Source: Octopus vulgaris (taxonomy: Eukaryota). Taken from it: a stretch of 64,000 nt of DNA. Shown here piece after piece: positions 6,259 through 37,607 of this stretch. The translations under genes and the position numbers were made by a program. The first letter of the stretch is position 1, and the number at the start of each line of letters is the position of its first letter. The stretch covers positions 88,660,001 to 88,724,000 of the forward strand of contig OX597825.1 of the NCBI GenBank assembly GCA_951406725.2, written 5' to 3'. The notes under the pieces were generated by a model that made no database searches, had not been told where the DNA came from, and was given only the letters and a program-made list of their open reading frames with translations.

Positions 6259-6736
6259 TAGTAGAAGATACCCAGACAATTCCACTTGCCGTTAGCTTAA
6301 ATTAACCTTTCATTTGATTAATCAGTCATTTGATTAAACTGTCATTTGATTGATTAATTAACCTCAACTACACAGATGGAGAAAATCAAATATATATCTT
6401 TACAAACATTACGTGTTTTGCTTAATTTTTTATATTGCGAGATCATGTGGAAGGAATTTGAACAAAATATCATAGCAGACCGTAGTTCTTATTTCATTGC
6501 TCAGTATCTCGTGGTTCAGGGATGCATTTTCACCAAATGTTATTGCTTCAATGTTAGTTGTGTAATTTGTGATGTTGACATGTGTAAACTAATTGTAGTA
6601 AAATGCAGAATGAAATTTAAGAGAAATGCAAAGAAATTCAGTAACTATTGAGGTTATTGAAGAATTACAAACTTTTGAGCGTTGGAGGAAATATATATAT
6701 ATACTATATATATATAAATATATATATATACAATGT

Positions 6737-9500
6737 ATTGATTGATTGATTGATTGATTCTAGTTTCAGCTTATGAGCTGTGGCCATGCTGGGGCACCGC
6801 CATTTTGTGTTGCTACTTGGTTTCACTTCATGGAGGCTTTATAGCAGCTGCTATTTGGTGCATGAGAGAGTTCGATGCAGCTGCCCTCATCTGCCCCTCC
6901 TGCCGTGAAGTTGGTTCATCTGGGACACCTGACAGGAAGAGATCCAGCTTCATTTTAAAGACATCTGTATCCACCCCATGCAGGTCTCTCAGGTTCTTCG
7001 GGAGGATATTGAAGAGCTGTGGGCCTCGGAAGCCCAGGCTATCACAGTATCTTGTCCTACATCTTGATGGCAGGTTTGGAGTCCTAGGCACCACGCAGTG
7101 GCGCCCAGTTCTGGCATTTGCGTAACTCTCGATGCCAAAGTTCAGGACACTTCCCTCCAGGATCTTCCAGATGTATATTATGGCATATCTTTCCCGCCTA
7201 CGCTCCAGGGAATATAATTTTAATCTCTTGAGTCTTTCCCAGTAGCTTACATTCTGCATAAAGGCTATCTTCTTTGTGTAGCTTCGTTGGATCGCCTCAA
7301 GTTCTGTGATCAACTTGACACTGGATGGTGACCATAGCTGAGAGCAATAGTCAAAGTGGCTTAGGACAAGTGTCTTCCAGAGGACCATCATGGTTTCTTG
7401 TTCTCTTGTTCTAAAGGTTCTAAGAATCCATCCAGCCAGCCGTCTACATTTCATTGTCAGTTTAGCAACATGTACATGAAAGGTCGCGTCATCACTCATG
7501 TGAATACCCAGGTCACGCACTGATTGTGCCTCTGGGATTGCAATCCCTCCGGGTCCAGTGTATTCATTGGGTATTGCATTCAGTTTTGCATGCTGATAGT
7601 ATAAAGCTTGAAACTTTCCAGCATTGAATTGCATGCTATTCTTTTCAGCCCACTTGTATATTTCGTCCAGCTCACATTGCAGGTGTTTAGTGTCCTCAGG
7701 GTTCTGTATTGCCTGTGAAACTTTTGTATCATCTGCATAACTTGTGATCGTGGCTCTCTGCGTGGCTGAGGGCATGTCTGAGAGGGCCATTATGAACAGT
7801 AGTGGTCCCAGAACAGTGCCCTGCGGAACACCGCTCACTATTTGTGTGTTAATGGAGGTGGCCCCATTGGCTACTACCACCTGACTTCTATCCTTCAGAA
7901 AGTCATGAAGCCATTCTCCCAGTTTTCCAACTATGTTGAGATCACGCAGTTTGTGACATATCATTCCATGATCGACTTTATCAAAGGCCTTTGCAAAGTC
8001 GAGATATATCACTTCCACATTTGAGTGGTTGAGCAGCCGTTTCAGCACCCAGTCATAGTGTTGTAGGAGCTGAGTTAAACAGCTTCTCCCTGGTCGGAAA
8101 CCATGTTGGGTGTCGGGCAGCAAGTCATTCTCTTCAAGGAAGGTGATCAGCTTCCTTCTGACTATTCGTTCCATGACCTTGCTGATGTGTGAGGTCAGAG
8201 AGATAGGTCTATAGTTCTTGGCTTCCGCTCTGCTACCTCCTTTATGAATGGGGCATATTTTACCTTCCTTCAGTTTTCCTGGAAGTTTGCCAGCTGCAAG
8301 GAAGCTCTGAAAGAGGAACTGCAGTGGTCTTGCTAGGACTCTCTTACATGCTTTTAGGAGGATTGCCGGGAATCCATTGGGGCCAGTAGCTGAGTCTGTT
8401 TTCATTTCATCTATAGCCTTGGTTACATCGTCTTCCTTTATATCGATGTAATCTATCGTCGCCGCCTCTGATTTTATATCTGCAGTGGTAAAAAAGTCAG
8501 TTGGATTGGTGATTTGGAGATGCCCAAGGGGTGGAGTGAAAACACTCTTGAATTGCTCATTCAGTATTTCACTTACCCTCATTGGTTTTCCTGTAAGTGT
8601 GCCATCCTTTTCGAGGAGTGGCCCTATTCTACAGTGCACTGTAGCTGTTTCTTTGGCATACCTGTAGAAAGCTCTGGGGTTAGATTTTATGTTTTCTATA
8701 GCCCAGGCTTCTTTGTCTGCTCTTTCTTTTTCATGGGAGAGTTGCAGACATTTTTCGATTTCCAACAGTTTTATTTTTAGGCGGGACTTTTCACTGCTTT
8801 CAATCTGTTTGTTTAGGCGATTTGAAAATTTCGTACGCCGTCTGATTAAAATTTCCTCTCTCTGGGGATTTTGTTCTTGTGTACAGTGGCCTTTCTCTCT
8901 GGGACACATTTGTAGCATATGGCTTGCATTACAGACATGAATTGTTGAAGTTTCACGTCGATGTCTGGCGAGGAGAGACATTTAGGCCAGTTTTGTTTGA
9001 GGATCTCTTTCTCAATTTGTTTCCAGTTTGCCTTATGGTAGTTCAAGCTGGAAAGATTTTGAGGGTTTCTTGTAGGCTGCATGTCCGTGCTCTCTTTTGG
9101 CCCGTACATGGTCAGCTCTATCATGTTGTGATCCGAGAGTAGTGTCGGTGTCACTTTCACATTATGGATGAGATCCATGTCATTTGTGAAGCAGAGATCC
9201 AGTGTGTTACCTGCCCTGGTTGGTTGGAGTATTACCTGCTCCATGTACAGGGTGTTGATGAGGTTCAGGAGGGACCTCGCCTGTCCTCGTTCACATCTTG
9301 TCATTCCTGGGAGAGAAAGGCCCTCGGGCCATCTGACATTGGGCAGATTGAAGTCTCCCATAAGAAGCATACCTATGTGTTGTTCTAATGTGGTTAGAAT
9401 TTCTTCTATTTTTATAAGGCAGTCTTCAAACTTGCCCACATGGCTTGGGGCATCTGGAGGGCGATATGTAGCACACACAACTACATCAAGTTGCCTAATA
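6737..9500 (-). mobile_element. CR1-group LINE family A, 5'-truncated, ORF2 (APE endonuclease C-half plus RT) with one frameshift
   Basis: YRPP, GDFN, TLDL, SDHN endonuclease motifs (ORF 8846-9478); [42 protein letters not shown] (ORF 6828-8981); (AATC)n tail; TA runs at both ends. Confidence 0.95.
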
Positions 9501-35952: not shown

Positions 35953-37607
35953 ATATATATATATATAAATATATATATAAATATAATATATATATATATA
36001 TATATATATATATAATATATATATATATATATATATATATATATATATATATATATATATATATATATATATATATATATATATATATATATATATATAT
36101 ATATATATATATATATATATAAATATATATATATAAATATATATATATATATAATAAATAAATATATATATATAAATAAATAAATATATATATATATAAA
36201 TAAATATATATATATATATATATATATATATATATATATATATATATATATATATATATATATATATAAATATATATATATAATATAATATATATATATA
36301 TATATATATATATATATAAATATATATATATAAATATATATATATAAATATATACATATATAAATATATATATATAAATATATACGTATATAAATATATA
36401 CATATATAAATATATACATATATAAATATATATATATATATACATATATATACATATATATATACATATATATATATATATATATACACATATATATATA
36501 TATATATATATATATATATATATATATATATATATTGTAGCTCACACACATGCATGCACACTCGAAGATATGTATATATAAAGAAAGGGAGAAAAGTGCC
36601 ATGGGATCACTTAATAACGATGACCTTGAACGAGCCACAACAACGGAAACAGAAAAGTTATTTGTAACGCATTCCCCCAAAAATATTCTTACTTCATGAG
36701 ATCGTAATATATCCACTTCGTGATATCATTAGCCATATACATTTTATCATACTGTTTACCAAACCAGCAATTTAATCATAGTGTTTACCTAAGTGACAAT
36801 TTAAGCAGTTGAATATCCGCAAATGTATTTGCCAACTGAACGCCATTTGATCTCCTTAAAAGCATATGCATATGACATGAGATCGTTGTCAACAGAAGTA
36901 TTAACTTCGTCATATTTGTATTGATTTTCTTACTTATAAAAGGCCAAACTTCTTCCGATGCATCAGGGCTGAATGCATATAAAGCTAAAGTAACAGAGAT
37001 AGATGCATGCAAATCTTGTATAACTTAAATGTAATGTATAAGTACACTGTATGTGTGCGTGTAAGCGCCTATGTGTATATGTTTGTGCACCCGTGAGTGT
37101 ATGTATGTTAGCAAAGGCACAAAACTGTATTTATAAAAGTAACGTACCATTTTCCCTATTAAAGGGCATCTAAAGAAGAGATCGCTACATTTAAAAACAA
37201 ATTGATATTTACATTTCTGCTGCGTTTTTGCCTCATAACAAGAAACAAAAGGACATTTTTAATATCATGGAAGCAAATACACAACCCATTTTACGAATAC
37301 ATTTTTGAAACTATATTAGGGTAGGTGTGAATGAGGGTATGCATGCATGCGTGGAGACTCAATCTGTAATTATATATATATATATATATATATATATATA
37401 TATATATATATATATAATATATATATATATATTACATATTGAGTCTCCACGCATGCATATTAGAACGTAAAGATGGATGACATGGCGCAGAGCATGTTGC
37501 CCGGAAACGAAACGACGCTGCCAGCACGTCACTTAACAGGTGTTAATATATATATATATATATATATATATGTGTGTGTGTGTGTGTGTGTGTGTGTGTA
37601 TGTGTGT

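Follow-up and report, generated by a model that had tools for sequence, protein, structure and literature searches.

The CR1-group LINE copies in a 64-kb stretch of the Octopus vulgaris genome (the window) show an insertion preference for alternating TA sequence that is real and modestly novel. Seven independent insertions from four families, all of them 5'-truncated, were recognized in this stretch (Table 1). We give an even chance to the reading that these families, which form two lineages, insert by TPRT at short sites of approximately TATA or ATAT that lie mostly within pre-existing arrays.

Table 1. CR1-group copies, TA arrays and a control element, by position in the window (a dot marks features without strand).
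Feature	Position	Strand	Description
A0	5185..6264	-	duplicate of the 3' 1 kb of A1 plus flank; without TA arrays
A1, family A	6737..9502	-	5'-truncated inside APE endonuclease; RT; twin-hairpin 3' UTR; (ATCA)n tail; TA arrays 6691-6730 and 9503-9613 (junction reading)
Control, L1/Tx1-like LINE fragment	17422..18734	+	(TAA)n at both ends, not TA
TA array, ATAC-type	20772..21429	.	at 3' end of C0
C0, family C	21437..21579	-	3' 140 bp only; 96% to C1; TA array at 3' end, 5' end without array
TA array, GTAT-type	22058..23195	.	split by SINE fragment S2 (22850-23049); ends at 3' end of C1
C1, family C	23193..25132	-	RT and 3' UTR; (TTCTAAGTTA)n tail; TA at both ends
TA array, ATAC-type	25133..25430	.	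at 5' end of C1
TA array, ATAC-type	26339..26850	.	ends in 99-bp perfect run at 5' end of D
D, family D fragment	26860..27552	+	69% nt to C1; TA at 5' end
Four TA arrays (490, 570, 1132, 628 bp)	28701..36580	.	AAAT interruption on + strand; split by A2, C2 and B
A2, family A	29208..31844	+	2494/2623 aligned bases identical to A1; TA at both ends
C2, family C subfamily	32416..32746	+	84% to C1; (TATCAAAG)n tail; TA at both ends
Non-array island	about 33292-33549		within the 28701..36580 array region
B, family B	33879..35952	-	76% nt to A; (ATTTAAGG)n tail; TA at both ends

All seven listed pieces are fragments of a CR1-type ORF2 or 3' UTR. A Pfam search found the RT domain RVT_1 in A1, B and C1 (E values of 1e-21 to 1e-30) and the N-terminal APE endonuclease domain Exo_endo_phos_2 in A1, while the copies of families B, C and D are truncated below this domain. 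A1 retains the endonuclease motifs YRPP, GDFN and SDH in intact form, and A2 shows them as well. Pfam detected no C-terminal CCHC zinc knuckle, a feature of L1/Tx1 and R1 elements, in A1 and B, whose C-terminal parts are complete and show RVT_1 only. From this domain content and from known motifs, we take families A-D to belong to the CR1 group, the RT tree having taken in unnamed relatives only. Native 3' ends were recognized by a common twin-hairpin 3' UTR (z of -2.55, -1.73 and -2.83 in A1, B and C1, respectively) followed by a short tandem tail. D has no native 3' end, as it is cut downstream at an inverted-repeat element (27553-27939).

Within the window, all six native 3' ends lie at most 10 nt from a (TA)n array, with a gap of 0 nt for C1, A2, C2 and B, 6-7 nt for A1 and 8-10 nt for C0. 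The truncated 5' ends follow the same pattern, since five of the seven have a perfect (TA)5 run no more than 10 nt away and six have an array within 18 nt; that of A2 adjoins the degenerate end of an array, and for C0 the nearest array is 152 nt away. Arrays including 10-nt margins make up 16.3% of the non-CR1 DNA (7.2% outside 20-37 kb). Under uniform insertion, the probability of six out of six 3' ends is thus 1.9e-5, or 1.4e-7 with the lower coverage. It rises to 1.2e-4 when the hits are counted as five independent arrays. All three figures are uncorrected for the choice of the window for this pattern and for growth of the arrays after insertion. The pattern itself comes from seven insertions in a single window chosen for it, three of which hit one common array. 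As an earlier note on this DNA had observed, the copies occur in both orientations, three on the plus and four on the minus strand.

The arrays are not simply tails encoded by the elements, as the same note had maintained. The tandem tails of families A to C differ from TA, and the insertions A2, C2 and B all interrupt one and the same array type, so that this possibility was rejected. The AAAT interruption that defines this type occurs 40, 38, 39 and 20 times in the four arrays at 28701-36580 and at most twice in each of the other 18 arrays of at least 60 bp, and it stays on one strand from A2 (+) through C2 (+) to B (-). Because such a strand-asymmetric type runs on through three families in both orientations, the AAAT-interrupted array is likely older than the three insertions. 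Arrays made by the elements would not behave in this way, which counts against the idea that a short TA seed grew into long arrays on both sides at or after insertion, through slippage while the gaps were repaired or through filler TA added where the 5' end was joined. Precedents for such growth do exist: empty sites of maize TAFTA elements measure 6-8 bp and expand to as much as (TA)50 on either side (PMC5907723), and extra nucleotides at 5' ends are common for L2 according to another study (PMC4245944). In one family A contig, (AT)7 replaces 64 internal bases (X3 joint 5751>5816), and the arrays next to CR1 copies are long. Yet 29 of the 39 arrays touch no CR1 copy, some of them measuring 300-370 bp, and together with the conserved AAAT strand this makes an origin of the arrays at or after insertion very unlikely.

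In the preferred reading, the APE endonuclease would nick inside alternating TA, and the freed 3' end would anneal to 1-3 nt in the tail of the RNA (AT or TAT) and prime copying. Joining of the truncated 5' end to the other half of the array would leave TA on both sides of either orientation, each insertion thereby splitting a pre-existing array. Long arrays would offer larger targets and receive more hits, which may account for the cluster at 20-36 kb. A tail/array overlap of 1-3 nt is seen at four of the six 3' junctions (A2, B, C1 and C2), and a 3' overlap between tail and target is described for CR1, L2 and RTE elements in PMC6007223. No specificity beyond four nucleotides has to be invoked: in non-CR1 DNA, 86% of TATA 4-mers and 83% of ATAT sites lie inside arrays, and a TATA or ATAT preference combined with tail microhomology hence suffices, predicting six out of six with P=0.40 or P=0.33, respectively (0.009 for a bare TA preference). 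Several observations count against this short-motif model, namely the switch of array type from GTAT to ATAC across C1, the missing 5' array of C0, the 6-10 nt spacers of A1 and C0, the presence of the preference in two non-sister lineages, TA-flanked SINEs, and a SINE with the A/B-like 3' motif that has no TA array (see below).

The earlier note had gone further and postulated an endonuclease specific for (TA)n or cruciforms. In such true array targeting, cutting would depend on an alternating tract of some length or on extrusion of (TA)n as a hairpin or cruciform, and the families would be microsatellite-specific LINEs like Waldo, Mino or Dong. Several features of the window would fit. None of the seven insertions sits at an isolated short TATA site, the arrays adjacent to CR1 copies are longer than the others (median of 501 vs 52 bp, Mann-Whitney P=0.0005), perfect runs of considerable length are in contact with several junctions, among them one of 99 bp near D, and TAA-flanked elements likewise show a family-specific pairing with a motif. 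Statistically, however, array targeting performs no better than the 4-nt preference or than hits proportional to length, under which the absence of all seven hits from untouched arrays has P=0.10. The spacing before the catalytic SDH of the endonuclease is ordinary, at 20 residues, and is shared by 33 of 35 pattern-matching sequences among 94 examined. Moreover, in two relatives (L081 and L001) the ends fall at short TAT/TATAT sites rather than at arrays, and two origins, or a loss in relatives, would be required. We thus regard array targeting as rather unlikely. Equally doubtful is its fuller form, in which APE endonucleases recognizing long (TA)n or cruciforms arose independently in two separate CR1-group lineages of octopods; CR1 would then join the groups of microsatellite-specific LINEs, its insertions splitting and regrowing the AT repeats that abound in cephalopod genomes. 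The junction pattern behind the proposal that CR1-group families are targeted to (TA)n largely holds, while the specialized endonuclease remains unsupported as stated. A feedback loop between insertion and array expansion, which the note had added, is not required either and was rejected as a necessity, since hits roughly follow array length.

The claim that every CR1-group piece abuts TA is true of the seven listed insertions and fails for A0, which lies 2237 and 426 nt from its nearest arrays. This piece duplicates the 3' end of A1 and its flank in tandem, with 92.8% identity to 6259-7802. At its junction (6120-6275), letters of flank and LINE form a mosaic, and the bin 6136-6197 has zero depth in all three contig runs. 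Because of the mosaic junction and the zero-depth bin, A0 is probably an assembly artefact and was not accepted as an independent counter-example. Contigs from the flank reach 21 and 54 letters beyond 5155. The presence of a false duplication with garbled consensus raises the question whether long-read contigs misjoined via TA arrays have united unrelated LINE copies throughout. Misjoins may relocate a copy, but they cannot make its own TA junctions, which are clean, with tails that merge in phase and an array type that continues across elements. An assembly origin of the whole pattern is therefore extremely improbable.

Among the LINE pieces of the window, the TA association is family-specific. 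None of the six ends of other LINE pieces is at TA; the Tx1-like and R4-like pieces adjoin TAA, and Dong/R4 elements are known to target (TAA)n. Homologs of the Tx1-like control carry RVT_1 and zf-RVT, its own zf-RVT match being weak and below the Pfam cut-off. No TA array surrounds the presumed RTE-like relic (44.3-45.7 kb) within 42749-47123; this label and that of the R4/Dong-like piece (15.6-16.0 kb) are tentative assignments from known motifs. The inverted-repeat element is not at TA either. In contrast, the SINEs S1 and S2 lack the CR1 3' motif and nevertheless have TA at both ends, as does a SINE fragment at 646-747. A SINE that does carry an A/B-like 3' motif is present as a full-length copy at 63.37-63.73 kb without a TA array.

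The TA-flanked SINEs may point toward a contribution of the host. Long TA arrays could break often, through cruciform cleavage by host nucleases, and capture retro-RNAs independently of an element endonuclease, with microhomology repair eroding the neighbouring sequence; junctions of several element types would thereby come to lie at TA. TA repeats are described as fragile, nuclease-cut sites in PMC12972899. S2 lacks its last 41 nt and shows an AT overlap at the TA junction, and this missing end suggests loss or capture at TA breaks. In addition, two CR1-group lineages behave alike in one host. In a quick tree, families A and B fall within a clade of 43 rows (SH-aLRT 98) and families C and D outside of it; judged by this tree, the two TA-associated lineages are not sisters. 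Both this and the TA flanks of an unrelated SINE suggest that host breakage may contribute. As the main explanation it is unlikely, because hairpins and tails are kept at all six CR1 3' ends, as TPRT predicts, and the Tx1-like, R4-like and RTE-like pieces as well as the inverted-repeat element are not at TA.

Further evidence against host breakage comes from an outgroup CR1-type family with a (AATCTTGTTA)n tail in another genome (G001), where long TA runs are present, yet none of 30 3' ends and none of 19 visible 5' ends adjoin TA. This control is weakened by a TA content about five times below that of the window (2.7% TA array in the flanks). This family shares the APE-RT ORF2, the short tandem tail and 5' truncation with the octopus elements, as expected for ordinary CR1-group LINEs, and differs in its junctions. 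A broader set of outgroup loci, 83 of them eligible, was checked from the protein match to a point 600 bp beyond the predicted end of the ORF, and TA of at least 12 bp was present in 4. The relatives obtained by scans of metagenomes and genomes were all distant (identity of 49% or less) and did not include a member of families A-D, and relatives of these families were not found in viral contigs.

The short TATA/ATAT preference may be compared with several known systems. Most target-specific families belong to the early-branched RLE, Tx1 and R1 groups, according to Kojima and Jurka (PMC4640811). Microsatellite-specific non-LTR elements include the R1-clade Mino at AC repeats, the NeSL-related Togen at (TG)n, some HERO elements and members of the Tx1 clade. 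Like these, the octopus families have the target repeat on either side of the insertion, truncated 5' ends included, with motifs differing by family; unlike these, they are of CR1 type with an APE and short tandem tails, and their preference is seen in one window. The Tn-TA signature of the RTE clade and the microhomology of CR1, L2 and RTE elements (PMC6007223 and PMC13295347) similarly combine a short TA-type target with a tail repeat that overlaps the first target bases. The RTE elements represent another clade, however, and the octopus sites lie within (TA)n arrays, in which TSDs are unreadable.

If true, a TA-repeat preference of the CR1 group would add a further APE lineage beside the target-specific RLE, Tx1 and R1 groups, widen the range of microsatellite targeting by a group of LINEs that is not known to show it, and tie LINE activity to the AT-repeat-rich genomes of cephalopods, such as that of a squid with more than 10% (AT)n (PMC9068888), and to hotspots of transposable elements. 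If the preference is only for short TATA, it would still provide a modest, useful case of host repeat content channelling insertions. No report of TA-targeting CR1 LINEs was found in the literature searched, an earlier mention being possible in Repbase Reports and supplements, which were outside the search; the word "target" is absent from the main text of the octopus annotation paper.

Chains of non-nested, unrelated elements linked by TA arrays, as formed here by A2-C2-B and S2-C1, resemble those of the plant elements SaTar, TAFTA, MuTAnT and Micron at (TA)n, and expansion of TAFTA flanks is likewise reported (PMC5907723). The plant elements belong to class II, are non-autonomous and bear terminal inverted repeats, whereas the octopus copies derive from animal LINEs of autonomous type that encode RT and APE and hence are not MULE-type DNA transposons. 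O. vulgaris harbors 13 recently active CR1 families (PMC13282606), and family A is very abundant, with 20,887, 12,075 and 4,256 records matching 4400-6258 in three contig runs.

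The junctions of CR1-group LINEs with probably pre-existing TA arrays reflect a real, family-linked association. Self-BLAST, tblastn and profile searches of the window, which is microsatellite-dense with 34% GC, revealed eight CR1-type pieces and no further ones. We assign families A–D to the CR1 group from anatomy and characteristic motifs; the RT tree contained no named reference. Among named sequences, the A1 ORF2 comes nearest to one from Argonauta hians (59%), which makes an octopod origin of the DNA likely. Since a twin-hairpin 3′ UTR followed by a tandem tail is common to families A, B and C, their native 3′ ends are recognisable; the tails of the CR1-type copies consist of (ATCA)n, (ATTTAAGG)n, (TTCTAAGTTA)n and (TATCAAAG)n. 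The 3′ part of D is cut at the second of two inverted-repeat elements (MITE- or foldback-like).

Repetitive elements in the window
Element	Position	Strand	Remarks
A0	5185-6264	-	eighth piece, absent from the earlier note's list
A1, family A	6737-9502	-	RVT_1 and Exo_endo_phos_2 (Pfam)
A2, family A	29208-31844	+	95% identical to A1 over aligned bases
B, family B	33879-35952	-	76% nt to family A; RVT_1 (Pfam)
C0, family C	21437-21579	-	
C1, family C	23193-25132	-	RVT_1 (Pfam)
C2, family C	32416-32746	+	
D, family D	26860-27552	+	
Inverted-repeat elements	19120-19624; 27553-27939		
L1/Tx1-like fragment	17422-18734		
R4/Dong-like 3′ piece (presumed)	15622-15978		
RTE-like relic (presumed)	44300-45720		
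580-bp element	16109-16685; 54772-55360		84% identical
SINE S1	9614-9962		
SINE fragment S2	22850-23049		truncated at both ends
A/B-motif SINE	41734-42157; 63377-63735		

Each of the six native 3′ ends has a TA array no more than 10 nt away: four join it directly, and those of A1 and C0 are separated from it by spacers of 6–10 nt. The 5′ ends are within 18 nt in 6/7 cases (5/7 within 10 nt). The earlier note's statement that CR1-group pieces abut TA arrays largely holds; for the 5′ end of C0, the nearest array is 152 nt off. Arrays do occur at truncated 5′ junctions, as the earlier note had also noticed, with insertions in both orientations (A1, B, C0 and C1 minus; A2, C2 and D plus). With margins of 10 nt included, arrays take up 16.3% of the non-CR1 DNA in the window and 7.2% outside the cluster (the region at 20–37 kb). 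The probability of 6/6 3′ ends is accordingly 1.9e-5, or 1.4e-7 with outside-cluster coverage, or 1.2e-4 if five independent arrays are counted, all with window selection and later array growth unaccounted for.

The TA arrays carry strand-asymmetric interruptions. Four arrays within 28701–36580, a region that includes a 250-bp non-array island, contain 40, 38, 39 and 20 AAAT interruptions on the plus strand, versus no more than two in any of the remaining 18 arrays that reach 60 bp. An element-made array would be expected to flip with orientation or vary by family. Because the AAAT strand is constant across the separating copies A2 (+), C2 (+) and B (−), the simplest reading is one older array region struck three times, which bears out the view that the arrays are more than element-encoded tails. 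C1 gives no support for a pre-existing array, as GTAT flips to ATAC across the element, and the flanks of A1 are uninformative on array age. A single hint of possible TA addition at joins comes from a family A contig of run X3, with (AT)7 in place of 64 internal bases (joint 5751>5816). Run X4 has TATA filler at joint 5630>5676.

How specific the target must be can be judged from motif frequencies. Within non-CR1 DNA, 46% of TA, 67% of TAT, 86% of TATA and 83% of ATAT sites lie inside arrays (24, 43, 71 and 66% outside the cluster), and P(6/6) under a preference for these motifs is 0.009, 0.087, 0.40 and 0.33, respectively. A bare TA preference is thus too weak to explain the 3′ ends, while a 4-nt preference suffices; long tracts or cruciforms are required by no result. 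Strict array or cruciform targeting by a dedicated endonuclease, as originally proposed, is the less likely reading; a preference for TATA or ATAT already yields such values. The best explanation, to which we give about an even chance, would be the usual target-primed mode of insertion, with a preference for short alternating-TA sites in a genome saturated with TA. At 4/6 3′ junctions, the tail merges into the array via 1–3 shared letters, an overlap between tail and target that has been reported for CR1, L2 and RTE (PMC6007223). CR1-adjacent arrays are longer (median 501 vs 52 bp, P=0.0005). The suggested feedback loop of array splitting and expansion is allowed but unneeded: 0/7 insertions in untouched arrays are unsurprising (P=0.10), because these hold only 28% of array bases. 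Plant SaTar/TAFTA DNA transposons are described as forming TA-linked chains like the window elements, with TAFTA flanks that expand upon insertion (PMC5907723). According to Kojima and Jurka, most target-specific families belong to the early-branched, Tx1 and R1 groups (PMC4640811). A recent annotation of Octopus vulgaris reports 13 CR1 families as active; the word "target" does not occur in its main text (PMC13282606). A literature search excluding Repbase Reports and subscription papers found no TA-targeting CR1.

In the window, TA adjacency of CR1-group copies exceeds that of other LINE clades, with 6/6 CR1-group 3′ ends versus 0/6 non-CR1 LINE ends. The L1/Tx1-like fragment has (TAA)n at both ends and may represent a Tx1 family targeted to TAA; a relative occurs in Argonauta. 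The piece that we take from its motif to be R4/Dong-like lies between (TAA)n tracts, 19 and 0 nt away. No TA array is near the old, broken and presumably RTE-like relic, a label that was not confirmed on checking. An unclassified 580-bp element has (TAA)n at both ends of its second copy and degenerate AAT-rich flanks at its first. The comparison with other TE classes is less clear-cut: S1 and S2 (lacking its last 41 nt), from a young SINE family with 97% identical copies, have TA on both flanks without the CR1 3′ motif, which argues against a CR1-only effect. Another SINE resembles families A/B at its 3′ end, where it has the GGCGGTGC..CATGGCC motif and a hairpin in the same position, which makes it a candidate passenger of these LINEs; one full-length copy (63.37–63.73 kb) has no TA array, and another copy ends at an 8-bp TA run.

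In G001, an outgroup genome from another host, a related family (36–37% identical to the A1 protein, (AATCTTGTTA)n tail, flanks with 2.7% TA arrays) has 0/30 3′ ends and 0/19 visible 5′ ends at TA among the best 30 of 40 matches listed, where two loci resemble one insertion and internal breaks may account for some of the "5′ ends". Of the outgroup loci L001–L160, 83 were eligible, and 4 of these have a TA run of at least 12 bp in the interval from the protein match to 600 bp beyond the expected ORF end. Many bacterial and archaeal genome bins (L081–L160) contain eukaryotic LINEs, with 153 matches in G001 alone, likely through host contamination. The A1 endonuclease retains the YRPP, GDFN and SDH motifs, with 20 residues of spacing before SDH as in 33 of the 35 pattern-fitting sequences (94 examined). 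In a quick tree built from 67 RT rows of subsampled loci and proteins, A/B fall inside a 43-row clade (SH-aLRT 98) and C/D outside, so the TA association would be convergent, set by the host, or inherited as an ancestral preference for a short motif. The last option fits the tails of L081 and L001, which end at a short TATAT and a TAT site, respectively (n=2).

A0 duplicates the 3′ kilobase of A1 plus flank (92.8%) and was left out of the counts, giving seven independent CR1-type insertions. The tandem duplication (4721–6264 vs 6259–7802) looks false: its TA array is garbled, and LINE and flank letters form a mosaic at the 6120–6275 junction. In 3/3 contig runs, the bin 6136–6197 has zero depth; normal family A sequence follows on from the loose ends at 6120. 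A0 is probably an assembly artefact; if real, it would be a duplication of the same insertion as A1. The region shows consensus artefacts of assembly near repeats.
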